Source: Thiohalobacter sp.
GTDB lineage: Bacteria > Pseudomonadota > Gammaproteobacteria > Thiohalobacterales > Thiohalobacteraceae
NCBI RefSeq assembly: GCF_027000115.1
Contig: NZ_JALTON010000016.1
Coordinates: 2,118 to 66,117 of the forward strand
Direction of reading: 5' to 3'
Length of the DNA stretch: 64,000 nucleotides
Below the pieces are notes generated by a model. That model saw nothing but the letters and a program-made list of their open reading frames with translations, searched no databases and was not told the origin of the DNA. This document shows, in pieces, positions 18,968-40,910 of this stretch. How positions within the stretch are numbered: the first letter of the stretch is position 1; every line of letters begins with the position of its first letter. The translations under genes and the position numbers were made by a program.

Positions 18968-19537
18968 ATGATGAAAAAGACCATTCTGGCTGGCGCGATT
19001 GCTGCTGCCATGGGCACCTCCGCTGCCAACGCTGCCGTAACCTCCATCAGCATCACCCAGATGGTGTTCGGAAACACGTATGCTGCGACCGGCTCCATCG
19101 ACATTGCCAATGGTTCCGGCGTGTTCACCTCGGTCGATCCCTTCTACAGCAACCACTGGACTGCGACCGTGCAGACGGTGTTCAGCAGCAGCGGCACCTG
19201 GGCCGGCACCTCGCCGCAGGGCGCCTTCAGCTACCAGTTCACCGTGGACACCACCGCTGGTGACGTGGCTGCCGTCGGCACCTACTTCGACTGGGCCACC
19301 AACCTCGGTATTCCGGTCCTGACCGTGTTCAATTGTGGCGCCGGCAACGTCGGTGATGCCTGCACCGGCCTGAGCCTCCCCATGGCTACGCTGCCTTTCC
19401 CCGGCCAGCAGCCCACTTTCAACGGTGTGGTTGCCGCTGCCAGCAGCCCGGTCCCGGTTCCGGCAGCCGTCTGGCTGATGGGATCCGGCCTGGTCGGCCT
19501 GGTGGGCGTGGCACGCCGCCGCCGTCGCGCTGCCTGA
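18968..19537 (+). CDS. small secreted protein with exosortase-type C-terminal sorting tag; N-terminal domain paralogous to 31307..32719
   Basis: Start at the ATG at 18968, 8 nt after GAGGAG. Signal peptide MMKKTILAGAIAAAMGTSAANA. C-terminus SPVPVPAAVWLMGSGLVGLVGVARRRRRAA. Confidence 0.85.
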   Translation: MMKKTILAGAIAAAMGTSAANAAVTSISITQMVFGNTYAATGSIDIANGSGVFTSVDPFYSNHWTATVQTVFSSSGTWAGTSPQGAFSYQFTVDTTAGDVAAVGTYFDWATNLGIPVLTVFNCGAGNVGDACTGLSLPMATLPFPGQQPTFNGVVAAASSPVPVPAAVWLMGSGLVGLVGVARRRRRAA

Positions 19538-19580
19538 GGCACGCGGCCAACAACCTGACGCAGTCTCCGGACTGCGGAAA

Positions 19581-19607
19581 ACGGGCGCTCAGGCGCCCGT
19601 TTTTTTT
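19581..19607 (+). terminator. Rho-independent terminator
   Basis: acgggcgc-tcag-gcgcccgt stem-loop followed by a T7 run. Confidence 0.75.
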
Positions 19608-19629
19608 GTTTTCTGGTAAATTACAGACA

Positions 19630-21429
19630 ATGACGACAGTTAACAGCGATTCCAGCTCCAGCGCGGCCCGTCACCTGGCTACCCTGGTTGCGGAGGGCCG
19701 CTTCGACGAGGCCATCCCCCTCATGCAGGAAAGCTGCCGGGCCATGCCGGGTAATGCTCGGGCCCACTATGCCCTGGGCTGTGCGCTCGCCAAGGTCGGC
19801 CGGCCCCAAGAAGCCGTTGACAGTCTTCGGACCAGCATTCGATTGAACCCGTCGAATCCCGAACCCCGAATGGCACTGGCAACCATCCTGCTACAAACAG
19901 GCAATATCGACGACGCCGAGAAAATTCTCAGGGAACTGCTTGAACAGACGCCGGACCACGTGGGGGCGCACCTGGCACTGGCGGAAATGGCGCTTGACCG
20001 AAGAGCCATGGATGCCGCGAAAAAACATTTTGAAGCCGTTCTCATCCAGCGCCCGCGAACGGGGAGGGCATTGCGCGGCCTTGCTCGAATCGAGCGCGGA
20101 CGCGGAAATTTCACCGCGGCCCAGCGTCATATAGAGCGTTGGCTGGAATTGGAGCCAGACTCTGCTGACGCCCTAGCCGCCATGGGGCACGTCATCACCG
20201 CACAAGCCACCGAGGGTTGCGTCGGTACACCCGTCGACGCCGAACCCTGGTTCCGGCGCGCCCTGGAACAGGTACCCGACCATATCGACGCCACTGCACA
20301 GCTCGCGCGGATCCTTGAGTTCAAGGGACATTTCGAAGAGGCCTACGAACTGCTCCAGCCACTGTTGGAGAATGATTCGCCGCCCGCCAGTATCGCGACG
20401 ATCTTTGCTCGGCTGTGCCACCGGGTCGGCCGCTGCGAAGAGGCCGTTGCCTACCTAGAGAAGGCTCTGGCCAGGGTCGGCAGTGCCAAAGACGCCGTCG
20501 CTCAAATTCACTTTGCCCTGGGGAGCGTTCTGGATCGCCTCGATCGTTACGATGAGGCCTTCGCACACTATGCTGAAGCCAACCGTCAGGCAACCCGCCA
20601 GCTGTACGATTCCACGAGCCATGCCAACTGGATCACCGAGATCATCGAGACACATTCGCGTGCCCTGCTGGGCCGATACCCGAGCGCGCGCAACCGGGAT
20701 GAGCGTCCCATCTTCATCGTCGGCATGCCGCGCTCCGGCACCAGCCTGGTGGAACAGATCCTGGCCAGCCATCCCGGGGTCGCCGCGGGCGGGGAACTCA
20801 TGCTCCTGAACGGCCTGGTGCAACAGGCCCAGATGCTGGACCCGGAAGAGGCGCCCTTTCCCCGGTTCATGGAGCGCCTGCCGGCAGAACGGCTCGACCA
20901 GATGGCGACGGCCTTCCTGGCCCACCTCGACGAGATCGGCGGCGATTGCTCCCGGGTCACCGACAAGATGCCCCACAATTTCTACTTTCTGGGACTCATC
21001 GAAAAGGCCTTCCCCGGAGCGCGCATCATCCACTGCCGGCGCGACCCCCGGGATACTTGCCTGTCGATCTTCTTCCAGAACTTCAATGAAGGGCATCCCT
21101 ATGCCCATGACCTGTTCACCATCGGCACCCACTACCACCAGTACCGCCGGCTCATGGACCACTGGCGCAATGTGCTCTCCCTGCCCATGCTCGAGATTTC
21201 CTATGAAGCGCTGGTCCGGGAACCCGAGGCCACGATCCGCGGGCTGCTCGAATTCTGCGGCCTGCCCTGGCACGATGCCTGCCTGGCCTTTCATGAAAGC
21301 CGCCGCCGGGTAAACACGGCGAGCTACGACCAGGTGCGCCGCCCCCTCTACACCCGTTCCGTGGACCGCTGGCGCCACTATGAGGCCCATCTCGCGCCCC
21401 TGCTGGAAGGACTGGAAAGAGGCTACTGA
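19630..21429 (+). CDS. TPR repeat-containing sulfotransferase (paralog 2)
   Basis: Start placed at the ATG at 19630 because the 19606 start overlaps the terminator. TPR array, then RPIFIVGMPRSGTSLVEQILASHPGVAAGGEL, IHCRRDPRDTCLSIFFQNF, TASYDQVRRPLYTRSVDRWRHY. Confidence 0.85.
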   Translation: MTTVNSDSSSSAARHLATLVAEGRFDEAIPLMQESCRAMPGNARAHYALGCALAKVGRPQEAVDSLRTSIRLNPSNPEPRMALATILLQTGNIDDAEKILRELLEQTPDHVGAHLALAEMALDRRAMDAAKKHFEAVLIQRPRTGRALRGLARIERGRGNFTAAQRHIERWLELEPDSADALAAMGHVITAQATEGCVGTPVDAEPWFRRALEQVPDHIDATAQLARILEFKGHFEEAYELLQPLLENDSPPASIATIFARLCHRVGRCEEAVAYLEKALARVGSAKDAVAQIHFALGSVLDRLDRYDEAFAHYAEANRQATRQLYDSTSHANWITEIIETHSRALLGRYPSARNRDERPIFIVGMPRSGTSLVEQILASHPGVAAGGELMLLNGLVQQAQMLDPEEAPFPRFMERLPAERLDQMATAFLAHLDEIGGDCSRVTDKMPHNFYFLGLIEKAFPGARIIHCRRDPRDTCLSIFFQNFNEGHPYAHDLFTIGTHYHQYRRLMDHWRNVLSLPMLEISYEALVREPEATIRGLLEFCGLPWHDACLAFHESRRRVNTASYDQVRRPLYTRSVDRWRHYEAHLAPLLEGLERGY

Positions 21430-21432
21430 GAC

Positions 21433-23394
21433 ATGAAGGCGCCCCCGAAAAAGGCACAGGAACTGTTCCGCAAGGCAACCGCGGCCCTGGAGCAGGGCAA
21501 CCCCAGGGACGCGCTGGCGCAGTTCGAGAAAATCGAGAAAATCTGGGAAAGGAACCCGGACATCTGTTACCTCAAGGGCCTGGCGCTGGGCCGCCTGGGC
21601 CGCATACACGAAGTGGCGGAGGTGTCGCGCGAGGGCCTGAAACTGGCGCCCGACCACCACGGCTGCCTGTGCAATCTGGCCAATGCCCAGATGACCCTGC
21701 AGGAGACGGAAGCGGCGCTTGGCAATTACGAGCGGGCGCTGGCCCTCAAACCCGGCGATCCCAACCTGCTCAACAACTACGCGCGCGCGCTCGCACTGCT
21801 GGGACGCCGCGACGAGGCGGTCGAAATCTACCGGCGCGTGGTCCAGACGGCGCCGAACTATGCGCCCGCCCATGTCTCGCTGGGCCGGGCCCATTACGCC
21901 GCCGGCCAGCTCGCGCAGGCAGCGCAAGCCTTCTTCCGCGCCTTGCGCCTCGACCCCCGCCAGTACGAGGCGCATCTCGGCCTGGGGCGGCTGCTGGAAA
22001 ACCAGGGCGGCCTCGAGCCTTCGCGCCGCCACTACGAACAGGCGCTGAAGCTCTTTCCCGATTGCATCGACGCCCGGGTGGGGCTCGCCACCCTGTGCCG
22101 TTACGAGGGGGATTTCGAACGCGCCATGACCTATCTCGAAGAGGCGGCGGAACGCGCAGGCGCGGACAACCCTTCCCTGCTCGCCGGCAAGGCCAATCTG
22201 CTCGAATACTGGGGCAAGCGCGAGGAGGCCCACGCCATCGTCACCGCCCTGGCCGAGCGCGGGCAGCTCACGCCCACTGCGGTCACCGTCCATGCCCGGC
22301 TCTGCCACCACTTCGATGACTGCGACAGGGCCGAGGCACATTTGAAGGATATGCTGGCGGCCCCGGCCACCGATGAGGCGGAACGCTACTCGCTGTACTT
22401 CGCGGCAGGCAGCATGATGGACAGGCAGGGTCGCTACCCGGAGGCCTTCGAGTACTACCGCAAAGGCAACGAGGCGGTGAACATCCGTTGCGACCGCGCC
22501 CGCTTCACGGCCCACGTGGACGCCCTCATCGAGACCTTTTCCAGGGAGAATCTGGCGCATTTCGCACGCGCGGAAACGGGCAGCGACCGCCCCATATTCA
22601 TCGTCGGCATGCCGCGTTCCGGCACCTCGCTCACCGAGCAGATCCTGGCCAGCCACCCCGAGGTTGCGGGCGGCGGCGAGCTGGACACCCTGGCCCGGGT
22701 CGCCAACATGCTGGCCGACACGCCCTCCGCGCCCTTCGGCGAGAACAGCCCGCTGACGGGCGACGCCTACCTGAAACGGCTTCCCGCAGCGGGCAGCCTG
22801 CGGCTGACCGAGCTGGCCTCGAAATACCTCGACCATCTGGACGGCATCGACGCCTCGGCCCGCCATGTCACGGACAAGATGCCGCACAATTTCCTGCGCC
22901 TGGGCCTGATCCAGTTGCTCTTTCCCGAGGCCAGGATCATCCACTGCCGGCGCAATCCCCTGGACACCTGCCTGTCCATCTATTTCCAGCAGTTCATCTG
23001 GAGCCACGACTATGCCTGGGACCTGTCGGACCTGGGCTTCCACTACAGCGAGTACTGGCGCCTCATGCAGCACTGGGAACGGACCCTGGACATCCCCATC
23101 CTCACCATCGACTACGAGGACATGGTCGCGGACCAGGCGGCCGCGTCGCGCAGGCTCCTGGAGTTCTGCGGCCTGGAGTGGCGCGAGGACGTGCTGGAGT
23201 TCCACCGCAGCGAGCGGGCGGTCACGACCGCGAGCTACGACCAGGTCCGGCGCCCCATCTACAAGAGTTCACGGGAGCGCTGGCGCAACTACGCGGACTG
23301 CCTCGCGCCCCTGGTCGAGGCCCTGTCCGACGAGGTGCGGGCGCGCATTCCGGGGCTCGAAGCCGTCCCCGCGGCGCGGCATCAGGCGCCCTGA
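21433..23394 (+). CDS. TPR repeat-containing sulfotransferase (paralog 3)
   Basis: 653 aa, starting 4 nt after paralog 2. TPR array, then RPIFIVGMPRSGTSLTEQILASHPEVAGGGEL, IHCRRNPLDTCLSIYFQQF, TASYDQVRRPIYKSSRERWRNY. Confidence 0.85.
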   Translation: MKAPPKKAQELFRKATAALEQGNPRDALAQFEKIEKIWERNPDICYLKGLALGRLGRIHEVAEVSREGLKLAPDHHGCLCNLANAQMTLQETEAALGNYERALALKPGDPNLLNNYARALALLGRRDEAVEIYRRVVQTAPNYAPAHVSLGRAHYAAGQLAQAAQAFFRALRLDPRQYEAHLGLGRLLENQGGLEPSRRHYEQALKLFPDCIDARVGLATLCRYEGDFERAMTYLEEAAERAGADNPSLLAGKANLLEYWGKREEAHAIVTALAERGQLTPTAVTVHARLCHHFDDCDRAEAHLKDMLAAPATDEAERYSLYFAAGSMMDRQGRYPEAFEYYRKGNEAVNIRCDRARFTAHVDALIETFSRENLAHFARAETGSDRPIFIVGMPRSGTSLTEQILASHPEVAGGGELDTLARVANMLADTPSAPFGENSPLTGDAYLKRLPAAGSLRLTELASKYLDHLDGIDASARHVTDKMPHNFLRLGLIQLLFPEARIIHCRRNPLDTCLSIYFQQFIWSHDYAWDLSDLGFHYSEYWRLMQHWERTLDIPILTIDYEDMVADQAAASRRLLEFCGLEWREDVLEFHRSERAVTTASYDQVRRPIYKSSRERWRNYADCLAPLVEALSDEVRARIPGLEAVPAARHQAP

Positions 23395-25274
23395 TCCCGG
23401 CACCAGGCCTGCCAGCGCGCCCGCCAGGCCTGCTCTATCCCCCGCGCCAGCCGTGCCGCATCACACAGCGGGGACCGCAGCAGCGCATCGCGCAGTCCGG
23501 CGCGCAGCCCGGCCAGCCTCTCCGTACCCGTCCCGGCCAGCTCCGCGGCAATGGCGACGTAGCGCGCGGGATCGTCCGCCACCCATTCCGGCCGCCCGAT
23601 GGCGGCCAGCAGCGAGGCGCCCACCCGGCTGCGGTGGACCCGGCCGGCCAGGCTCACCACCGGAACCCCCATGAGCAGGGCCTCGCAGGTGGTGGTGGTA
23701 CCGTTGTAGGGAAAGGTATCCAGGGCGATGTCCAGGCGCCGGTAGAGCGCCAGGTGCGCCTGGCGTCCCGGCGTGTGTCCCAGCAGCTCCAGCCGCGCGG
23801 TTTCGATGCCACGACCCCGGAACCGCGCCTCGACCATGGCCCGGACCTCCGGATCGGTGAGCGCGGGGCTCTTCAGCAGCAGGCGCGAACCCGGGACGGC
23901 CGCGAGCAGGTCCGCCCAGGCGGCGACCACCGACGGACCGACCTTGGACAGGTTGTTGAACGAACCGAAGGTGACAAAGCCGTTGTCGGCCGCCGGTGGC
24001 GGCGACGGGTCCGGCACCTCCCGGGGGGGCCGATAGGCGAGGAAGGGTGCCGGAACGCGGACCAGTTCTTCCGTGCACCAGCGTTCGCTGCCGGGCGGAT
24101 CCGTGATCTCGTCGACGATCCGGCCGTCGATCGCGGGCAGCCCCGTGGTATTGGGGTAGCCGAGGTAGGTGAACTGCAGCGGCGCGGGGCGCAGCGCGAA
24201 CACGGGCAGGCTGTTGTGCGCGGTGTGGCCGGCGAGATCGACCAGGATGTCGATGCCGTCGGCCGCCACGCGTCCGGCGAGGGCAGACGGGGCCTCGCCC
24301 GCGCAGGCCCGCCAGTGGTCCGCCGCGGCCCTCAGCGCCTGGCTCACGGCATCCTCCCTCGGCGAGGTGGAGTAGCAGAAGATCTCAAATCCGCCCCGGT
24401 CGTGCGCCTCCAGCAATCCCTGGAGGAAACTGGCCACGGAATGGGCCCTGAGGTCCGGCGACAGGTACCCGATCCGCAGCCTGCGGTCCGGGTCGGGCGC
24501 ACGGGGCGGGCAGAGGGGGCCGCCCGAGGCCGACGCCAGCCGTTCGCCCCATGTCCGGTGGGCCTGCAACAGCTCGGCCTCGTCCAGCCCCTCGAGGTAA
24601 TTGAGCGCCAGCAGGTAGCCCGAATGCGCCGGTGCCGCGGGCGGCAGCGTCCGGCAGGCCTCGCGGTGCAGCTCGACGGCCTCGCCGGCGTGCCCCAGCA
24701 CCAGCAGGGCGGAGGCCAGTCCGCTCTGCACCGGCAGCCGGGGATCCCGCCGTCTCGCCTCCTGGTAGGCGGCCACCGCCCGCGAGGGGTAGCCGCGTGC
24801 GCTCTCGACCGCGGCCAGGTTGGCCCACAGGCGCGCCTCCCCCGGCGTGGCGGACACCGCGCGCCGGTAGACCTGCTCCGCCTCGTCCAGTTCGTTGCGG
24901 GCGATCAGGATCTGTCCCAGCAGGTCCAGGCCCTCGCCGTGGGCCGGAGCCACCGACAGCGCCTCGCGAACGGCGCCCAGCGCCTCGTCCGTCGCGCCGC
25001 AACGCCAGAGCACGCGCGCCACGTTGGTCTTCAGCGCGGGCTCGGCCGCCCCGGCCGCAAGCGCACGCCGGGCATGGCGCAGCGCCTCGGCACGGTTCCC
25101 CAGCTCGGCCTCCACGTGCGCGAGCAGCCCCCAGGCAAGCGCCGGCGGCCGGGCGCCGCGAACCAGCCGTTGCAGGAGTACGCGGGCCTCCACGAAAGCG
25201 CCGCCCGCGACCAGCTCGCGCGCCTTCTGCAGCCTGGCACCGGCCTTGGCGGCCCCCGGACGGACCCCGTTCAT
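23382..25274 (-). CDS. TPR repeat-containing GT41-type glycosyltransferase (O-GlcNAc transferase / SPINDLY-like)
   Basis: Start at MNGVRPGAAK (25274). TPR array, then RIGYLSPDLRAHSVASFLQGLLEAHDRGGFEIFCYS, FGSFNNLSKVGPSVVAAWADLL, LDTFPYNGTTTTCEALLMGVPVVSL, the typical COG3914/GT41 catalytic region. The 3-prime end overlaps the convergent gene by 13 nt. Confidence 0.8.
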   Translation of the reverse strand: MNGVRPGAAKAGARLQKARELVAGGAFVEARVLLQRLVRGARPPALAWGLLAHVEAELGNRAEALRHARRALAAGAAEPALKTNVARVLWRCGATDEALGAVREALSVAPAHGEGLDLLGQILIARNELDEAEQVYRRAVSATPGEARLWANLAAVESARGYPSRAVAAYQEARRRDPRLPVQSGLASALLVLGHAGEAVELHREACRTLPPAAPAHSGYLLALNYLEGLDEAELLQAHRTWGERLASASGGPLCPPRAPDPDRRLRIGYLSPDLRAHSVASFLQGLLEAHDRGGFEIFCYSTSPREDAVSQALRAAADHWRACAGEAPSALAGRVAADGIDILVDLAGHTAHNSLPVFALRPAPLQFTYLGYPNTTGLPAIDGRIVDEITDPPGSERWCTEELVRVPAPFLAYRPPREVPDPSPPPAADNGFVTFGSFNNLSKVGPSVVAAWADLLAAVPGSRLLLKSPALTDPEVRAMVEARFRGRGIETARLELLGHTPGRQAHLALYRRLDIALDTFPYNGTTTTCEALLMGVPVVSLAGRVHRSRVGASLLAAIGRPEWVADDPARYVAIAAELAGTGTERLAGLRAGLRDALLRSPLCDAARLARGIEQAWRARWQAWCRDQGA

Positions 25275-25584
25275 GCTGCCCCCGCCGCCGGCGCTTTGCA
25301 GCTCCCAGCCATCCCGTACCCGACTTCGAGCACCAGTGCCCGGCCCGGGTCGCGCAGTGGAACGTCCGGACCGGTTCCAGAACGGTATCGGGCGACGCGC
25401 GAAAAGTTGCCAGCGCGTCCGGGCAGCGGAATAATGGGCCTGCCCCCCCTCTGCCGGCGGGCACCACGGATGGCGACGGGTCTGCGCCCGGGCGGGAGAC
25501 AGAACCTCTGGCAGGTCGGCCACCGATGGCGCTGCCTGCCGCTGTTTTCATGAACACCTGACATAACGAGAAGACGAACCTACC

Positions 25585-27165
25585 ATGGTCAAGCGCATAA
25601 CAATAGTGGGTGGGGGATCGGCGGGCTGGATGACGGCCGCGCACCTGGCGCAGACGCTGCCCGGGGTCGAGATCACCCTGGTCGAATCACCGAACGTCCC
25701 CATCATCGGCGTCGGCGAATCCACCGTGCCGCCCATCGTCGATTTCATGGCCAGCCTGGGGCTCAAGGAACAGGACTGGATGCCGGCCTGCAAGGCCACC
25801 TACAAGAGCTCCATCTGCTTCCGCAACTTCCATGGTACCGACGGCAAGACCATGTGGTTCCCCTTTTCCGGGACCTGGTCCGTTGCCGGACGGCCCGCCG
25901 CGCAGCACTGGCTCTATCGATATTTCACCGATCCGGCCTTCAACGATCGCTTTTCCATCTACGACTATTGCACCCTGGTCCCCGAAATCTGCCGGCAGGG
26001 CAAGACGGTGCGCTCCCTCCCCAATGCCACCTACGCCTATCACCTGGATGCGATCGCGCTGGGCGAACGACTCAAGGTCCATGCCAAGGGCAAGGGCGTG
26101 AAACACGTCCAGGCGCTGATCACCCAGGTCACCCGGCGCGAGGACGGCGCGATCGACCGGCTGGAACTGGACAACGGCGAGGCCCTGACCGCGGACCTGT
26201 TCGTCGACTGCTCCGGCTTCCGCTCCATGCTGCTTGCCGGCACCCTCGAGGAGCCCTTCGAGTACTACACGGATGCCCTGTTCAACGACAAGGCCATCGC
26301 CCTGCGCCTGCCCTTCGACCCGGAACGCCGGGAGGCGGAGATGGTTTCCTACACCCTCTGCACGGCCCTGTCTTCCGGCTGGGTCTGGACCATCCCCCTG
26401 TACAATCGTCTGGGCACGGGGTATGTCTACAGCAGCCGCCACCTCGAGCCCGACCAGGCCGAAACCGAGTTCCGCGGATTCCTGAAAGAACTCCTGGGCG
26501 ACGACCGTGCCGACGGGCTGGAGGCCAAGCACCTGGATATCCGGGTCGGCAAGCATCGGCGCACCTGGGTGAAGAACTGCGTCGCGATCGGACTGTCGGC
26601 CGGCTTCGTGGAGCCGCTGGAATCCACCGGGCTGCAGATCGTCCAGAGCCAGGTCCACCTGCTCGCCGAGACGCTGCGCGCCCGCGGCGGCTTCAACATC
26701 GCTGACGTCAACATCTACAACAAGAGCATCCGCGACCTCCTCGACAGCATCAAGGACTTCCTCGTGTGTCACTATGCGCTGACCGAGCGCGAGGACACCC
26801 CTTACTGGAAGGACGTCAAGTACACCACCGAGATCTCCGACGCGCTTGCCGAGAAGCTCACCCTGGCTCGCAGTGTGCTGCCCGCACCCGGCAACCTGCA
26901 GCGCTTCGATACCGGGGGCGCACTCGCGGGCTTCGGGTTCAACGACGGCTGGTACTACATCCTGGTGGGCATGGGCCACCTGCCCTTCGCAGTCGGGAAG
27001 CAGCGGGAGATGGGCGTCGGCATCTTCGATGCCGTGTTCCAGAAACACGCGGCGGAAGCACAGCAGATGGCGGACCGGCTCAAGGCCGAGCATCCCAGGA
27101 TCGGGCAGCTCCCGAGCCATTACCGGTTCCTGCGTGACAACATCTACGGGGGCGCGGAGGAATAG
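25585..27165 (+). CDS. flavin-dependent halogenase (tryptophan halogenase family)
   Basis: 526 aa. FAD motif ITIVGGGSAGWMTA, family motif SGWVWTIPLYNRLGTGYVY (WxWxIP), conserved Lys context ACKATYKSSICF. Confidence 0.85.
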   Translation: MVKRITIVGGGSAGWMTAAHLAQTLPGVEITLVESPNVPIIGVGESTVPPIVDFMASLGLKEQDWMPACKATYKSSICFRNFHGTDGKTMWFPFSGTWSVAGRPAAQHWLYRYFTDPAFNDRFSIYDYCTLVPEICRQGKTVRSLPNATYAYHLDAIALGERLKVHAKGKGVKHVQALITQVTRREDGAIDRLELDNGEALTADLFVDCSGFRSMLLAGTLEEPFEYYTDALFNDKAIALRLPFDPERREAEMVSYTLCTALSSGWVWTIPLYNRLGTGYVYSSRHLEPDQAETEFRGFLKELLGDDRADGLEAKHLDIRVGKHRRTWVKNCVAIGLSAGFVEPLESTGLQIVQSQVHLLAETLRARGGFNIADVNIYNKSIRDLLDSIKDFLVCHYALTEREDTPYWKDVKYTTEISDALAEKLTLARSVLPAPGNLQRFDTGGALAGFGFNDGWYYILVGMGHLPFAVGKQREMGVGIFDAVFQKHAAEAQQMADRLKAEHPRIGQLPSHYRFLRDNIYGGAEE

Positions 27166-27217
27166 CACCGCCGGGGCTCTCCGGCGCGCGCGTTCCAGGA
27201 TTCCGGGTTCTGTCGGT

Positions 27218-28549
27218 TCAGGCTTCGGGGCGGGTTACGCCGTGCGCCTCCAATATGTCCCGCAGTTCCCCCAGCATCGGCGCGTAGCGCTTCCACTTGC
27301 CGATCGAAGCCGCCGACAGCGGTTTCCGTACCTGGGTATCGCTCGGCGTATTGATCTCCCGCTCTGTTTCATGGAAGCGCAGGCAGGCCGGATCGAAGGG
27401 CAGCCCGCAGAAATCCAGCAGGGCGGCGATCTCGCCGTCGGGATCGGCGACCAGCCGTTCGTAGCAGAGCCGGTGAATCCTGCCGGGCAGGACCTGCTCC
27501 CAGTGCGCCATCAGCCGCCGGTAAAGGACATAGACGCGGCCGAGATCGCCCCAGTCGTGGGCATAGGCGTGGCTGTCCGACAGCGGCTGCTGGTAGATGG
27601 ACAGGCAGTTGTCCAGGGGATCGCGGCTGCAGTGAACGATCGGGGCCTGCGGAAACAGGAGCGCGATCAACCCGACCAGGCGGAAATTCATCGGCGTGGT
27701 GTCGGTGAAACAGGCCGCCTCGGCGACATGGGCGGGAAGCTTGTCCAGGTAGCGGGCCGCCAGCGCTTCCAGTCGAGCCTCGCCCAGATGAAGCACGTTT
27801 TCGGCCAGCGGCCTGCCGGTCGACTGTCCCAACTCGCGGACGATTTCCTCCAGGGCGATGATCTCGCCCCCGCCCGCCACCTGCGGATGGCTGGCGAGGA
27901 TCTGCTCGGTGAGCGTGGTGCCGGAGCGCGGCATGCCGACCACAAAGATGGGGCGCCGCCCGGGCACCGCAGTCGGCGCCGCCCGGCCCAGCAACTCCGG
28001 CGTGAAGGCATGGATCAGCCCCTCGATGTGCTGCTCGTAGGCGCCGGCGTCGAACACCGCGCCGGCCTGCCGCGCCAGCCCATGGACCCGGCCCCACCAG
28101 GCCATGGCCTGCTCCGCATTCCCTTTGCGGTCGAAGACCGAAGCCATCGCGAAACCCAGAAACACGCGTTCGTTCGCCGGCACGTCGGAGCGGGCGAACA
28201 GACGCGCCATAACCTCGAGTTCGCGGTCCGAAAAGTCGTGGACGCGCATGTGCGCCAGGTGAAAATAGGCCATGGGCGTGGCCGGGCGCAGCCGGATGAC
28301 CTCATGGAAACACCGGGCCGCCTGCGCAAACCGCCCCCGCCTGCGCAGGACCAGGCCGAGATTCATCAGCGTGGGCACGTGCCCCTTTTCCAGCTTCAGG
28401 ATACGCCGGTAGTCGCGTTCCGCGGCCTCCAGCCTTCCGGCCTGCTGTGCGCCGACCGCCTGCCGGAACCATTTTTCCAGTTTGTCTCGCAACGCAAGCT
28501 CCCCTGCATCGGAATACAACGCGGCGCGGATTTTACCGCGTGCCACCAC
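27218..28549 (-). CDS. TPR repeat-containing sulfotransferase (paralog 4, short TPR region)
   Basis: 443 aa: RPIFVVGMPRSGTTLTEQILASHPQVAGGGEI, VHCSRDPLDNCLSIYQQPL, TPSDTQVRKPLSAASIGKWKRY. Confidence 0.85.
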   Translation of the reverse strand: MVARGKIRAALYSDAGELALRDKLEKWFRQAVGAQQAGRLEAAERDYRRILKLEKGHVPTLMNLGLVLRRRGRFAQAARCFHEVIRLRPATPMAYFHLAHMRVHDFSDRELEVMARLFARSDVPANERVFLGFAMASVFDRKGNAEQAMAWWGRVHGLARQAGAVFDAGAYEQHIEGLIHAFTPELLGRAAPTAVPGRRPIFVVGMPRSGTTLTEQILASHPQVAGGGEIIALEEIVRELGQSTGRPLAENVLHLGEARLEALAARYLDKLPAHVAEAACFTDTTPMNFRLVGLIALLFPQAPIVHCSRDPLDNCLSIYQQPLSDSHAYAHDWGDLGRVYVLYRRLMAHWEQVLPGRIHRLCYERLVADPDGEIAALLDFCGLPFDPACLRFHETEREINTPSDTQVRKPLSAASIGKWKRYAPMLGELRDILEAHGVTRPEA

Positions 28550-28590
28550 TTCAGTAGACTCGGCGATCCCCCGGCATCGCGACCCCGGCC

Positions 28591-29484
28591 ATGAACGACT
28601 CGAATGCAGTCCACGCGCTGCGCGCCAATCCTGCCACCTGGATTTCCATCCTCGCCATGGGCGGGTTGCTGACGGCGCTGAGCCTGGTGCCGGACCCGCT
28701 CGCCCTGGCGCGCGACTATGGCCAGTTCCTCGCCCTCGGGCTGGCCGGGGCCATCGCCGCCAATTCGACCGGGGCGGGCGGCGGCATCGTCTTCATCCCC
28801 GCGTTCACCTCGCTGGGCATCGGCGGCGAAAACGCGCTCGCCACCAGCCTGGCCATCCAGTGCTTCGGCATGACTGCCGGCAGCATCGCCTGGCTGGTGG
28901 CCCTGAAACGCCATGAATACGGGGGCCGCCACGCGGTCTCGCTGGTGCGCAGGCTGTTGCTGATCACCGCGCCCCCGGCGGCAGCGGGCATGCTGCTCGC
29001 GCAGTATCTGGTTCCGGCCCCGCCGCTGGCAGTGGCGACCATCTTCAAGTATTTCTCCATCCTGTTCGGCCTGCTGCTCCTGTACGGCACGCTGCGCAAG
29101 CCGCAGCCGCACCCGCACGCCATCCACCGGCTCCACCGGCGCCATGTCGTGCCCATCGTCGTCTGCGCCCTGGCCGGTGGCATGGTCACGGCCTGGATCT
29201 CGATCGGCGTCGGCGAGTGGCTGGCCCTGCTGCTTTTCTTTCTGGGCTACCCCACGATGATTTCGGTCTGCATCGCCGTGTGCATCTCCGCGCTCACAGT
29301 GTGGGTCGGCATCGGTTATCATGCCGGTACCGATGGCCACATCGTCTGGCCCATCGTGCTCTTCGCCGCGCCGGCGGCCATGGTCGGCGGCAGCGTCGCG
29401 CGTTACCTTGCCCGCCGGCTCGGACCCGTTCGTCTCAAGATCTTCTTCAGTACCTGGATTCTTGCGACCGGCCTCGTGATGTAG
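28591..29484 (+). CDS. TauE/SafE (DUF81) family anion permease, sulfite-exporter-like
   Basis: 297 aa and polytopic. Gly-rich motif NSTGAGGGIVFIPAFTSLGI is typical of the family. Confidence 0.7.
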   Translation: MNDSNAVHALRANPATWISILAMGGLLTALSLVPDPLALARDYGQFLALGLAGAIAANSTGAGGGIVFIPAFTSLGIGGENALATSLAIQCFGMTAGSIAWLVALKRHEYGGRHAVSLVRRLLLITAPPAAAGMLLAQYLVPAPPLAVATIFKYFSILFGLLLLYGTLRKPQPHPHAIHRLHRRHVVPIVVCALAGGMVTAWISIGVGEWLALLLFFLGYPTMISVCIAVCISALTVWVGIGYHAGTDGHIVWPIVLFAAPAAMVGGSVARYLARRLGPVRLKIFFSTWILATGLVM

Positions 29485-29808
29485 GCTCGCGGCATGGGCC
29501 GGGACGCCAACAAATTGGCGTCCTTCAGGCGGCGCGTTCGCGTTGCTTGACAGTCCGTTTCAGCGTATTGCAAGATTGCCGCGGCTACAACAAACCCAGG
29601 TTCCTGGCCGGTGTTCGTCGCGGATCCACCCGCCCCGCGGGCAGACCACGCCACACCGGATCCAGGCAAAGGAAAAACAAGGCCCGACCAAGGCAGAGAA
29701 GCCGCTATCAGGCGCACAGCGATCTGGTAGCAGACGACGATGTCCCTGCTCCGTTGCCAGCGAGAAACGGGCACTGCCGGACGGCCGGGTTTCGGAGGAG
29801 ACAGTTCA

Positions 29809-31230
29809 ATGGACTCTACCTGCCTGAAAAAGGTCGGGCCCCGCGCGCTTGCGCTTGCCATCGCAGCCACCCTTTCGGCGCCCGCTGCCGCGACCAACGG
29901 CTATTTCCTGATCGGCTACGGCTCGAAGAACCGGGCTCTGGGCGGCGCCAGCGTGGCGGTGGGGAACGATTCCCTCTCCATAGCCGCCAACCCCGCCACA
30001 CTGGCCGATCTGCGCATGAACACCATGCGCATCGACGTTTCCGGCGAATTCTTCATACCCCGCCGCGCGTCCACCCACAATGCGGACATCCTCGGCGGCG
30101 AATACAGCGAAACAAGCGGCGCCAACGTCTTCCTGATCCCCGCGATGGGCGGCGCCTACAAGTTCAACCGCAAGATCTCGGTCGGCATGGCGGCCATCGG
30201 CGCGGGCTCCAACACCCGCTTCGACCAGTCGCTGCCGGAGTGCTTTGACGGCGATCCCAACACCAACGGGTCCCGGTTCTACAACTTTTCCTGTAACGGC
30301 GGCCCCACCGCTGGCGTCAATCTCCTGCAGATGCAGATGCTGCCCACGGTCGCCTACCGCCTCAAGAAGACCCAGTTCATCGGCTTCTCGCTGGCCATCG
30401 GCGTGCAGAGCTTCCGGGCCTACGGGCTGGAGTCCATGGGCGCGCCCGGCTCACCGCTCAACTTCACTTCCGACCGGGAACACCTGTCCAACAACGGCAA
30501 TGACTGGTCCTACGGCGCCGGCTTTCGCGTCGGCTGGCTGGGCAAATTCTTCAAGAAGCGGCTCAGCGTGGGCGTGAACTACGCCTCCCGCGTGTACATG
30601 TCCAAGTTCGACAAGTACCGGGGCCTGTTCGCCGAGCAGGGCGATTTCGACATCCCGGCGCACTATGCCATCGGCTTCGCCGTCAAGCCCCGCAAGGATC
30701 TGACCCTGCTGCTGGACATCCAGCGCATCGAGTTCAGCTCCATCGCCTCGGTCGGCAATCCGGGTCCCGATCCGGCCAACCCCAGCGACTTCTTCCCGCC
30801 GGGCTGTGTCGCCTCCAATCCGCCCGATCCGGCGCTCAACAGTTGCGCACTGGGCCGCGACGACGGCATGGGCTTCGGCTGGAAGGACCAGACGGTGTAC
30901 AAGCTGGGCATCCAGTACGAGTACAACCCCAAGCTGACCCTGCGCGCCGGCTACAACTACGGCAAGGCTCCCATCCCGGAGGACCAGATTGCCTTCAACC
31001 TGCTGGCGCCGGCAACGGTGGAGCACCACCTGACTGCGGGCTTCAGCTATCGGCCCAGCCCCAGCATCGAGTGGAGCATGAACTACATGGTGGCGTTCAA
31101 GAACACCATCCGCGGCAAGACGCCCTTCTACCCGGCGGGCATCAGCCAGTTGTCCGACCTGGACTTCCCCAACGCCGCGACCTCCATGTACCAGCACTCG
31201 CTGGGCCTGACCTTCTCTTACAAGCTGTAA
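29809..31230 (+). CDS. outer membrane transport protein, OmpP1/FadL/TodX family
   Basis: Start at the ATG at 29809, preceded by GGAGGAG. Signal peptide ...AIAATLSAPAAA. N-terminal hatch TNGYFLIGYGSKNRALGGASVAVGNDSLSIAANPATLADL with the NPA motif. Beta-strand-rich, ending ...LGLTFSYKL. Confidence 0.8.
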   Translation: MDSTCLKKVGPRALALAIAATLSAPAAATNGYFLIGYGSKNRALGGASVAVGNDSLSIAANPATLADLRMNTMRIDVSGEFFIPRRASTHNADILGGEYSETSGANVFLIPAMGGAYKFNRKISVGMAAIGAGSNTRFDQSLPECFDGDPNTNGSRFYNFSCNGGPTAGVNLLQMQMLPTVAYRLKKTQFIGFSLAIGVQSFRAYGLESMGAPGSPLNFTSDREHLSNNGNDWSYGAGFRVGWLGKFFKKRLSVGVNYASRVYMSKFDKYRGLFAEQGDFDIPAHYAIGFAVKPRKDLTLLLDIQRIEFSSIASVGNPGPDPANPSDFFPPGCVASNPPDPALNSCALGRDDGMGFGWKDQTVYKLGIQYEYNPKLTLRAGYNYGKAPIPEDQIAFNLLAPATVEHHLTAGFSYRPSPSIEWSMNYMVAFKNTIRGKTPFYPAGISQLSDLDFPNAATSMYQHSLGLTFSYKL

Positions 31231-31306
31231 GCCCCATGGTCAGACTGCCGAACCAATCGAATATGGATAGACAGCGACGGGCCTGATCCGTCGCGGGAGC
31301 ATTCTC

Positions 31307-32719
31307 ATGTCGACATCACAGATCAAACATCCCTTGAAACGCTTTCCCCTTGCCGCGCTGGCGCTGGGCCTGGCCATGGCCGAACCGGCCTCGGCCGTGG
31401 AAACGATCAACATCAATCAGATGAACTTCAACGGCCTGTACACCGCCACCGGCACTATCGACCTCACGACCACCGGTTCCGTGTTCACCTCGGTGGATCC
31501 CTTCTTCAACGCCCACTGGACGGCCACCGTGCAGACGGTGTTCACGAGTTCCGGGACCTGGGCCGGCACCTCGCCGCAGGGCGCCTTCAGCTACCAGTTC
31601 ACCCTGAACACGGCCGCCGGTGACGTGGCGGCCGTCGGCACCTACTTCGACTGGAACGGCAACTACGGCATCCCGGTCCTGACCGTTTTCAACTGTGGCA
31701 GCGGCAACCCGGGTGATCAGTGCACCGGCACCAGCCACCCCATGGCAACGCCCCCCTTCCCAGGCCAACAGCCGGGCTTCAACGGGCCGGTAGGCTCGGC
31801 TGGCTCGGACATACGAACCACGGCCACCGTGGGCGGCAACAATGTCGTCATCAACGTGGTGTCATACCTTCAGAGCGTCGACTCAAGCCTGAACCTCGAT
31901 CCCGCCAGCCTCAGCATAACGGCTGGACCCGCCTTGGGCACGGTCACGGTCAACAACGCCACTGGCGAGATCACCTATCAGCCGCCCGCAAACGCAACCG
32001 ACGAGTGCAAAAGCGACCAGCTCAGTTATACGATCAACAATACAGCCGTTAATCCTGTTGTACCGGTCACAGCGAAGATATTTGTCGACATCGGTCCCAG
32101 TGGCGCGCTGTGCGAGAAGAACGGCCTCACCGTCACCCCCGGACCCACCGACACCGATGGCGATGCCCGGGTCACCCTCAGCGAACTCCTGAGCGCGGGT
32201 GTCGGCAGCGACTCGGCCGTAATCACGGCCTGTGTCGGCGGCTGCTTCGACTACAGCGTGACCGGCGTCGCCCCCGGCGGTACCGCCACGCTGGTGCTGG
32301 AACTCGACGAACCCATACCCCCGGTGCCCAAGCTGCGCAAGTGGGACGGCTCGGCCTGGGGCGATTTCGTGGAAAACGCCAGCAACACGGTAGCCTCCGC
32401 GGCCAAGGTGAACGGCGTCTGCCCGACCAGCAAGTACTCGACCGGCCTGCTGCCCGGAAACGAGTGCCTGCAGATCACCATCCAGGACGGCGGACCCAAC
32501 GATACCGACGGCGCGGCCAACGGCACCATCGTGGATCCGCTGGGTGTCGGCAAGGAGCTGATCCCGGCCGCCGACACGCCGCTGGGCAGCACCTTCGGCG
32601 GCGGCGCGGGTTGCGCGCTTGCGAAAGGCCCGGCGCCCTGGACGCAGCATCTGGAATGGCTGCTGCTTGCCCTGACGGGTGCGGCGGCAGGCATGTCCCG
32701 GCGACTGCGTCGACACTGA
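31307..32719 (+). CDS. secreted protein: N-terminal domain paralogous to 18968..19537, central extension, and a different C-terminal anchor (Gly/Cys motif + TM + Arg-rich tail)
   Basis: 470 aa. Signal peptide ...LALGLAMAEPASA. Residues about 30-170 align with the 19-kb paralog at roughly three-quarters identity by eye. C-terminus STFGGGAGCALAKGPAPWTQHLEWLLLALTGAAAGMSRRLRRH. Confidence 0.8.
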   Translation: MSTSQIKHPLKRFPLAALALGLAMAEPASAVETININQMNFNGLYTATGTIDLTTTGSVFTSVDPFFNAHWTATVQTVFTSSGTWAGTSPQGAFSYQFTLNTAAGDVAAVGTYFDWNGNYGIPVLTVFNCGSGNPGDQCTGTSHPMATPPFPGQQPGFNGPVGSAGSDIRTTATVGGNNVVINVVSYLQSVDSSLNLDPASLSITAGPALGTVTVNNATGEITYQPPANATDECKSDQLSYTINNTAVNPVVPVTAKIFVDIGPSGALCEKNGLTVTPGPTDTDGDARVTLSELLSAGVGSDSAVITACVGGCFDYSVTGVAPGGTATLVLELDEPIPPVPKLRKWDGSAWGDFVENASNTVASAAKVNGVCPTSKYSTGLLPGNECLQITIQDGGPNDTDGAANGTIVDPLGVGKELIPAADTPLGSTFGGGAGCALAKGPAPWTQHLEWLLLALTGAAAGMSRRLRRH

Positions 32720-32858: not shown

Positions 32859-33422
32859 ATGTCACGGCATTCCATCGCCCTGTTCCTCGCGGTTCTGCTC
32901 GGCATGCGCCCGGTAGTCTCGAACGCGGACCCGGATGCGGCGATCTACCGGCTCAATCCCGGCGACACCCTGCTGATCTCGGTCTGGGGCGAGGAGAACC
33001 TGCAATCGGAAGTGCTGGTGCGCCCGGACGGCGGCATCAGCTTCCCGCTCGCGGGCGAGGTCAAGGCTGCCGGCCGCGCCCTGAGCGACGTCGAGGCGGA
33101 GCTGGCGAAGAAGCTGTCCAGGTACATCCCCGAGCCGCTGGTAACGGTGGCGGCGAAACAGCTCCTCGGCAACAAGGTCTACGTCATCGGCAAGGTCAAC
33201 CGCGCCGGCGAGTTTCCCATCAATCGCCCGACGGACGTGGTGCAGGCGCTGGCCATGGCCGGGGGCATGACGCCCTATGCGGCCACCGGCAAGATCAAGG
33301 TGCTGCGGCGCGAGGGGGGCGCGCTGAAGGCCATTCCCTTCGATTACGGGGAGATCGAGAAGGGAAGAAACCTGGCGCAGAACATCGTGCTGAAGGCCGG
33401 GGACGTGGTGGTGGTTCCGTAA
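32859..33422 (+). CDS. polysaccharide export protein (Wza-like; PEP-CTERM-locus EpsE-type)
   Basis: 187 aa. Signal peptide, then YRLNPGDTLLISVWGEENL...VRPDGGISFPLAGEVKAAG...VYVIGKVNRAGEFP...LKAGDVVVVP (Poly_export + SLBB pattern). Confidence 0.85.
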   Translation: MSRHSIALFLAVLLGMRPVVSNADPDAAIYRLNPGDTLLISVWGEENLQSEVLVRPDGGISFPLAGEVKAAGRALSDVEAELAKKLSRYIPEPLVTVAAKQLLGNKVYVIGKVNRAGEFPINRPTDVVQALAMAGGMTPYAATGKIKVLRREGGALKAIPFDYGEIEKGRNLAQNIVLKAGDVVVVP

Positions 33423-40100: not shown

Positions 40101-40910
40101 TCACAGGTACTCGGACCAGTTGCGCGAGTCGTCGCCGAACACCAGGAAATGCGGGTTGAGTAGCGAGTCCTTGGTGTTGTAGCGCAGGGTATTCATGTCG
40201 GTGTCGGTGAGCCGGCCGCCGGCCTCCTCCACCACGCACTGGGCGGCGGCGGTATCCCATTCCGAAGTCGGCCCGAGACGGGGATAGATATCCGCGCGGC
40301 CTTCCGCCACCAGGCAGATCTTGAGCGCACTGCCCATGCTGATGATCTCGTGCTCGCCGACCTTCTCCAGAAAGCGGTTGAGCGAATCGCCGCGATGGGA
40401 GCGGCTGCCGGCCACCACCAGCGGGCCGGGTTGCAGCTTGCGCACATGGATGGCCTCGGCCGGCGCGTCGCCGGTCTGGCGGAAGGCGCCGCCGCCGCGA
40501 CAGGCGTAGTAGGTCACGCCCAGCACCGGCACATGCACCACGCCCAGCACCGGCTCGCCGCGGTGGATGAGCGCGATGTTCACGGTGAACTCGCCATTGC
40601 GCTTGACGAACTCCCGCGTCCCGTCCAGCGGATCGACCAGCCAGTACCAGTCCCAGCGCGCGCGCTCCTCGTAGGGCACGCTGGCGGACTCCTCCGACAG
40701 CACCGGCACATCCGGCGTCAGCCGCGCAAGACCCCCGGTGATGGCCCGGTGCGCGGCCATGTCCGCCGCAGTCAGCGGGCTTTCGTCGTCCTTGTGCTCG
40801 ACATCGAAGTCGGTCTCGTAGATCTCCAGTATCCGGCAGCCGGCCTCGGCAGCCAGCGCGCGCACCTCGTCGAGCAGTGCGCAGGGGTCGATGCTGCTGT
40901 TATCGGTCAT
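40101..40910 (-). CDS. cysQ: 3'(2'),5'-bisphosphate nucleotidase (PAP phosphatase)
   Basis: 269 aa: DESPLTAADMAAH, WLVDPLDGTREF, WDTAAAQCVVEEAGG (IMPase-fold CysQ motifs). Confidence 0.88.
   Translation of the reverse strand: MTDNSSIDPCALLDEVRALAAEAGCRILEIYETDFDVEHKDDESPLTAADMAAHRAITGGLARLTPDVPVLSEESASVPYEERARWDWYWLVDPLDGTREFVKRNGEFTVNIALIHRGEPVLGVVHVPVLGVTYYACRGGGAFRQTGDAPAEAIHVRKLQPGPLVVAGSRSHRGDSLNRFLEKVGEHEIISMGSALKICLVAEGRADIYPRLGPTSEWDTAAAQCVVEEAGGRLTDTDMNTLRYNTKDSLLNPHFLVFGDDSRNWSEYL

Follow-up and report, generated by a model that had tools for sequence, protein, structure and literature searches.

Cysteine-containing C-terminal sorting signals that are cut by proteases of the myxosortase family form a described class (Haft, bioRxiv 10.1101/2023.06.07.544157). 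For one of these signals, MYXO-CTERM, Cys-dependent cleavage by the protease MrtX has been demonstrated experimentally (Guo, Haft and Wall, mBio 2025, PMC11980579), and lipidation and type II secretion have been proposed (PMC11980579). Another, JDVT-CTERM, is built from one invariant Cys, a near-invariant Asp-Pro nine residues on, a Leu-rich helix and an Arg cluster; its client is usually single in a genome and encoded beside the protease MrtJ (adjacent in 16 of 17 cases surveyed), and the MrtJ model NF033192 is confined to proteomes that have a JDVT-CTERM client (Haft, bioRxiv 10.1101/2023.06.07.544157). Here we describe a 64,000-nucleotide (nt) stretch of the genome of a Thiohalobacter sp. 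(assembly GCF_027000115.1, contig NZ_JALTON010000016.1, positions 2,118 to 66,117; hereafter the window) in which two paralogous genes, one short and one long, encode the same N-terminal domain in front of two different C-terminal tails, one of the VPLPA-CTERM type and one containing a single Cys. We propose, with a probability of about 0.72, that both proteins are exported by the Sec pathway, that the tag of the short paralog is removed by the exosortase XrtD, and that the tail of the long paralog is a long-spacer variant of JDVT-CTERM served by MrtJ.

The likeness of the two proteins had been noticed in a first-pass annotation of the window, according to which the two open reading frames (ORFs) share a domain over its whole length and a 48-nt run of identical DNA. 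Both statements hold. Residues 22-168 of the short paralog align without gaps to residues 29-175 of the long one with 103 identities in 147 positions (70%, BLASTP E 2e-69), and the identical run was recovered by exact string comparison (Table 1). At the DNA level the identity is 73% over 441 codon-aligned nt and is unevenly spread; the central ~200 nt are 83-90% identical and the edges 50-60%. Judged from their N-terminal sequences, both proteins are predicted to start with Sec-type signal peptides.

The short paralog is an ordinary member of the VPLPA-CTERM/XrtD system, with no unusual feature. Its tail, described in the first pass as VPVPAAVWLMGSGL...RRRR, scores above the cut-off of the VPLPA-CTERM model TIGR03370 (25.35 bits) both within the whole protein (28.4 bits) and alone (33.7 bits), and the VPLPA-CTERM-specific exosortase XrtD (TIGR04152) is encoded in the genome (579 bits, cut-off 400). 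The assembly (2.65 Mb, 63 contigs, 100% complete, 66.7% GC) contains one further exosortase, XrtA (343 bits, cut-off 208), which brings the total to two, and carries 16 VPLPA-type and about five PEP-type tails.

The long paralog ends very differently. Its last 45 residues (LGSTFGGGAGCALAKGPAPWTQHLEWLLLALTGAAAGMSRRLRRH) read GGGAGC ... EWLLLALTGAAAGM ... RRLRRH up to the stop codon, forming a tripartite C-terminus in which a Gly-rich linker and G435-C436 are followed by a 13-residue spacer, E450-W451, a Leu-rich helix (residues 451-463) and an Arg cluster (465-469). This is the succession of Gly/Cys motif, spacer, transmembrane helix and Arg cluster quoted in the first pass, and C436 is the only Cys of the tail, as in JDVT-CTERM. 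A choice-of-anchor U domain at residues 311-415, which had been overlooked, precedes it (NF041766, 58.1 bits, cut-off 32). No NCBIfam sorting-domain model accepts the tail above threshold; only JDVT-CTERM and MYXO-CTERM appear as weak matches, and neither PEP-CTERM nor GlyGly-CTERM matches even at E values up to 10.

Of the two described Cys-type systems, JDVT-CTERM (NF033191) shares with the tail the tripartite layout, the Arg cluster, a lone Cys that follows a run of Gly and an acidic residue where the Leu-rich helix begins. The genome has one such client and an MrtJ above cut-off, and homologs in sister genomes carry the canonical signal. With MYXO-CTERM (TIGR03901; 12.0 bits, cut-off 20) the tail has in common a Cys-containing tripartite tail and an enzyme of the same CPBP/Rce1-like superfamily. 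However, MYXO-CTERM is served by MrtX, MrtC or MrtP, usually reads GCGC, has an uncharged helix start and dozens of clients and is found in other lineages, whereas the enzyme of the present genome scores as MrtJ.

The number of clients was determined with a hidden Markov model (HMM) of the tail, built from 30 related tails with the window's own tail left out and run on every six-frame ORF of the genome; it replaced a crude regular-expression scan that gave many spurious high-GC ORFs. The long paralog scored 28.0 bits (E 1.5e-6) and the next ORF just 14.1 bits, so that the genome has no second client of this kind. The genome also encodes exactly one CPBP/Rce1-like protein, which is MrtJ (NF033192, 107 bits, cut-off 75; G000:C61:69711-69998), so that tail and enzyme co-occur as in JDVT-CTERM systems. 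Its motifs EExxxR, FxxxH and HxxxN are intact, and it scores far below the cut-offs of MrtX, MrtC and MrtP. No ORF in the genome reaches the cut-off of JDVT-CTERM or MYXO-CTERM. With no recognised client for MrtJ and no recognised enzyme for the Cys tail, an orphan enzyme and an orphan tail are thus found in one genome. MrtJ is also present in 19 of the 21 sister genomes; the close relatives are labelled Thiohalobacteraceae or Thiohalobacterales.

Given that the long paralog lies directly upstream of XrtA-type export genes, and that its closest homolog (P0002, 54% identity) has a GlyGly-CTERM end (19.3 bits, cut-off 15.5), the tail could be a divergent PEP-CTERM or GlyGly-CTERM handled by XrtA or by a rhombosortase. 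We regard this as very improbable. The tail has no P-E-P or VPxP motif, the enzyme that adjoins such tails in other genomes is a CPBP protease and never an exosortase, and the genome lacks a rhombosortase (TIGR03902), its best rhomboid scoring 29.6 bits against a cut-off of 84. With no model of either kind matching the tail, the rhombosortase and PEP-CTERM readings were rejected. The link to rhombosortase suggested in the first-pass annotation accordingly fails, and the ordinary PEP-CTERM variant for which it had allowed finds no match.

The organization of the tail is conserved among homologs. Eleven of the 12 homologs of the long paralog end in the same type of tail, [SG]-G-C-[STAV]-[LIM], a spacer, [D/E]-W, a Leu/Gly/Phe-rich helix and Arg or Lys; the JDVT-CTERM scores of the 12 are at most 19 bits, with no match at all for four tails. 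Every tail in alignments of 17 and of 27 sequences has the G-C, and almost every one the Trp. Of 34 variant tails, 23 have the acidic residue at Cys+14 (range 11-15), whereas all five canonical controls have it at Cys+9, and the tail from the window, with E450 at +14 and then W451, is at the mode of the variant spacers. The variant tail also ends proteins unrelated to the long paralog, namely a Peptidase_S8 protein (G003), a DUF5122 beta-propeller (G007) and a VesB-like Ig-domain protein (G009). Such occurrence on unrelated proteins is what sets a sorting signal apart from a stretch that belongs to one protein family.

This distribution bears on the alternative in which the C-terminus is an uncleaved single-pass anchor with a positive-inside cluster and the long paralog an inner-membrane protein facing the periplasm. 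Such an anchor would be in keeping with the failure of every curated sorting-signal model to accept the tail, with its being the only one in the genome and with the lack of an adjoining protease gene in the window. Yet a plain anchor needs neither an invariant Gly-Cys 14 residues before the helix nor [D/E]-W at the helix start, both of which are kept across tails that are 20-37% identical; nor does it account for the grafting of the tail onto unrelated proteins or for a myxosortase-family protease directly downstream in five genomes. An uncleaved anchor is, in our judgement, quite unlikely. The first pass had named a simple membrane anchor as the outcome if the tail occurred nowhere else, and it does recur in related genomes.

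The long-spacer variant grades into canonical JDVT-CTERM. Within the bacterial family, the choice-of-anchor U proteins of one genus (g2; G001, G008 and G011) carry the canonical signal (GGGGC-SLGRSGTQ-DP-LFPLLALL...RR, 40-44 bits), and other genera carry the [D/E]-W form. The NF033191 scores of homologous tails form a continuum of 44, 41, 27.5 (a DW tail of G001, just at the cut-off), 23, 20, 16 and 9.7 bits. Canonical and variant tails occur together in three genomes (G001, G009 and G012), each with one full MrtJ gene; in G012 an extra, partial MrtJ match (29 bits) lies 5 kb from the full gene. Canonical tails number up to three per genome in Thiohalobacteraceae, so that MrtJ is not confined to one client there.

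Beyond the family, 80 loci were found when one genome per species was scanned with an alignment of choice-of-anchor U domain plus tail (a 7-sequence subset of the 17). Their C-termini were variant Cys tails, canonical JDVT-CTERM (two Oleiphilaceae metagenome-assembled genomes (MAGs), of which the one scored reached 42 bits), GlyGly-CTERM-like ends (Pseudoalteromonas and others), OmpA-like beta-barrels (Shewanella, Rheinheimera) or no recognisable anchor. MrtJ was sought in 35 of these genomes, 14 with the variant tail, two with the canonical tail and 19 with other C-termini or none. It was found above cut-off in 9 of the 14 variant-tail genomes and adjoins its client in both canonical-tail genomes, and it was above cut-off in none of the 19 whose choice-of-anchor U proteins end otherwise. 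The remaining five variant-tail genomes encode a myxosortase-family protease that scores 46-60 bits against MrtJ, and in all five (L046, L048, L051, L054 and L063) its gene directly follows the tailed gene. These five CPBP proteases (~170-240 residues) fall below all cut-offs (Mrt_core 45-78 bits, cut-off 100; MrtJ 46-60, cut-off 75; MrtP 36-83, cut-off 250) and are a candidate unmodelled Mrt subfamily.

The adjoining proteases invite the alternative that the long tail is a separate signal whose own cognate enzyme belongs to that unmodelled subfamily. The enzyme would then be missing from the present genome, where the tail would be served by a promiscuous MrtJ or be a relic. The subfamily's position under every Mrt cut-off argues for a separate signal, as do a spacer length and a motif that differ discretely from canonical JDVT-CTERM. 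Against this stand the 9 of 14 tail-bearing genomes that have a bona fide MrtJ and no such adjoining enzyme, the gradation of tails into canonical JDVT-CTERM on homologous proteins within one family, and the absence of a second CPBP gene from this genome. A separate signal with its own enzyme is thus unlikely, if somewhat less so than a plain anchor.

Several observations weigh against service of the tail by MrtJ as a JDVT-CTERM variant. The long tail itself scores only 9.7 bits (E 0.79) against NF033191, whose cut-off is 27 and on which canonical controls reach 42-44 bits, and Asp-Pro at Cys+9 is replaced by Glu-Trp at +14/+15. The gene context differs from that of described JDVT-CTERM systems as well, since MrtJ lies on another contig (C61) and does not adjoin the long paralog, and a genome of the bacterial family can have as many as three or four clients. 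In that family MrtJ has a fixed context, GalE / secreted protein / MrtJ / HypD, with never a tailed client beside it. Seven family genomes (completeness 74-95%) have MrtJ but no detectable tail, so that the pairing is not clean in MAGs. Finally, the co-occurrence sets come from different orders (mainly sulfur-oxidising lineages versus Alteromonadales-type genomes), and the counts represent an association that is not phylogenetically independent.

The secreted protein in this context is conserved, has ~250-290 residues and matches nothing in Pfam or NCBIfam. Of 12 family loci inspected, 10 have it immediately upstream of MrtJ, usually with GalE and HypD as the outer neighbours. In the present genome it is encoded directly upstream of MrtJ (G000:C61:68816-69577; L001:606-1367) and overlaps the start of MrtJ. 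A role as MrtJ client was rejected, as the protein lacks a tripartite tail in all 12 genomes inspected. The start of MrtJ was also considered as a frameshifted JDVT tail, and this too was rejected, since no Arg cluster follows the DPW...L-rich stretch found there; this stretch is probably the first helix of MrtJ.

Taken with XrtD and with MrtJ as the only CPBP protease, the data support the choice-of-anchor arrangement put forward in the first-pass annotation, with two sorting routes for one domain family. Its further suggestion that the second tag is an undescribed signal stands only in part. The tail belongs to the described Cys class and grades into JDVT-CTERM; the variant form is new and is missed by current models. 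The novelty is confined to an unmodelled long-spacer variant of the JDVT-CTERM/MrtJ class, more than a plain anchor and less than a wholly new signal.

The combined results suggest a model of how the two paralogs may be sorted. Both would be exported by Sec, with the C-terminal helix and the cytoplasmic Arg cluster keeping them in the inner membrane. From the short paralog, XrtD would remove the VPLPA-CTERM tag. In the long paralog, the signal of G-C, 13 residues, [D/E]-W, Leu-rich helix and Arg cluster would be recognised by MrtJ, the single myxosortase-family glutamic intramembrane protease of the genome, which we infer to cut close to Cys436. By analogy with MYXO-CTERM and MrtX, Cys436 is probably modified, and the mature protein probably stays on the cell surface, possibly after passage through a type II secretion system; the type II secretin GspD is encoded in the genome (597 bits).

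The N-terminal domain that the two proteins share is an uncatalogued choice-of-anchor domain. Neither Pfam nor NCBIfam has a match for it in family scans, and the family of the short paralog (530 relatives at 90% clustering, without Pfam domain) bears the NCBI name 'VPLPA-CTERM sorting domain-containing protein', which refers to the tail only. An AlphaFold2 model (predicted local distance difference test (pLDDT) score 97.3; predicted template modelling (pTM) score 0.90) is all-beta with ten strands. Two fold searches with confident models gave no significant match in the PDB; those that ranked best, nitrobindin and retinol-binding protein (E 0.14-0.2, TM-score 0.37-0.44), give only a weak hint of a calycin-like barrel. 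Among 1.84 billion representative proteins, relatives of the domain fall into 78 clusters. The first-pass annotation had proposed a catalogue of its C-terminal partners, and this turned up at least five kinds of C-terminus: VPLPA-CTERM-like (43 clusters), classical PEP-CTERM (2), the Cys tail (10), dockerin-like (3), helix-plus-basic of the S-M-N or F-S-L type (7) and GlyGly-like (1), with the remaining 12 fragmentary or tailless. Because of this variety, the domain is a choice-of-anchor domain in the NCBIfam sense. It resembles the choice-of-anchor domains of that database, such as NF041766, which the long paralog also contains, in standing as one secreted domain before several alternative anchors, and differs from them in having no Pfam or NCBIfam model.

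The helix-plus-basic tails are found on seven long relatives (P0022, P0028, P0053, P0059, P0061, P0070 and P0083) and read, for example, ...ASMNIVALFGSLLALFGLR..RKK or ...FSFSLWTLFAGILSVVGLRR. They lack Cys and PEP, show no clear GlyGly motif and were matched to no sorting-signal model.

The two paralogs bracket a cassette of genes (window 18968-32719) in the order short paralog, two TPR-sulfotransferases, TPR-GT41, flavin halogenase, TauE permease, FadL-type channel and long paralog. The same order is kept in GCA_015494215.1 (loci L144, L145 and L162, from GCA_015494215.1 and the ENA scaffold_100), where the short and the long copy are 45% identical, with indels. The pairing of short and long copies is therefore old, as the same cassette persists there although its copies are just 45% identical. 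In a tree of the domain, both window paralogs cluster with three homologs of close relatives, two of them short and one long (support 100/99), apart from other long forms. This joint grouping, together with the uneven identity that is high in the centre and low at the edges, suggests from sequence comparison that the N-terminal domains have been homogenised in this lineage. Gene conversion would be the simplest route, and the 48-nt run of identity is in keeping with it. The secreted beta-domain proteins may be substrates of the tailoring enzymes of the cassette.

Downstream of the long paralog lies an EPS (exopolysaccharide) locus of the XrtA type. Its first gene encodes a polysaccharide export protein whose score against TIGR03027 (125 bits) is below the cut-off of 180, and is followed by genes for a TIGR03016-like outer-membrane protein, a chain-length determinant, a tyrosine autokinase and an ATPase. 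The export gene also follows the tailed gene at five other loci (L043, L044, L047, L057 and L086), and in Sulfuricaulis the Mrt-like protease lies between the two. The EPS locus of the window also includes a gene for a CysQ 3'(2'),5'-bisphosphate nucleotidase (40101-40910, minus strand; 324 bits), which fits a heavy turnover of 3'-phosphoadenosine 5'-phosphosulfate (PAPS) by the neighbouring sulfotransferases.

Table 1. Features of the two paralogs and of the genes that flank the long one, in window coordinates.
Feature	Position	Strand	Basis
Short paralog, 189 residues: signal peptide, shared beta-domain, VPLPA-CTERM tail	18968..19537	+	ORF
Predicted Sec signal peptide of short paralog (MMKKTILAGAIAAAMGTSAANA / AV)	18968..19030	+	Hydrophobic core and A-N-A site, read from sequence
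Shared domain in short paralog, residues 22-158; ten-stranded, all-beta; two conserved Cys (C123, C132)	19031..19441	+	
48-nt run in short paralog, same as 31556-31603	19196..19243	+	Exact string comparison
VPLPA-CTERM sorting signal of short paralog, residues 162-186	19451..19525	+	TIGR03370
FadL/Toluene_X-type outer-membrane channel, directly upstream of long paralog	29740..31230	+	ORF; syntenic gene elsewhere has PF03349
Long paralog, 470 residues: signal peptide, shared domain, linker, choice-of-anchor U domain, Cys-type tail	31307..32719	+	ORF, domain matches, homologs
Shared domain in long paralog, residues 29-165	31391..31801	+	BLASTP
48-nt run in long paralog, same as 19196-19243	31556..31603	+	Exact string comparison
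Choice-of-anchor U domain of long paralog, residues 311-415	32237..32551	+	NF041766
Cys-type tripartite tail of long paralog, residues 426-470	32582..32716	+	Leave-out HMM, alignment of 27 tails
Polysaccharide export protein, opens XrtA-type EPS locus directly downstream of long paralog	32859..33422	+	TIGR03027 top match

A bolder reading, which we put forward tentatively and hold to be appreciably less probable than the variant of JDVT-CTERM proposed above, would join these elements. The tail of G-C, 13 residues, [D/E]-W, helix and Arg cluster would be a distinct Cys-type CTERM signal with its own dedicated, unmodelled subfamily of myxosortases, whose genes directly follow that of the client in Sulfuricaulis and in several MAGs of Gammaproteobacteria. 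The MrtJ of Thiohalobacteraceae would be a housekeeping enzyme acting on this tail and on canonical JDVT-CTERM on several clients per genome. The shared beta-domain would be a new choice-of-anchor family, with its two copies bracketing the sulfotransferase/GT41/halogenase cassette and possibly serving as its substrates.

The tail is not named by annotation pipelines, and surface proteins of sulfur-oxidising Gammaproteobacteria that carry it, among them subtilases, propellers and choice-of-anchor U proteins, are consequently taken for plain membrane proteins. Recognition of the long-spacer [D/E]-W form would widen the substrate range of MrtJ and the myxosortase family, and MrtJ is not always a one-client enzyme encoded beside its client. 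The shared domain and the adjoining protease subfamily both lend themselves to new family models. With one domain placed on an exosortase and a putative myxosortase route in the same cell, the two paralogs offer a natural test case for asking how the sorting route affects the location of a protein.

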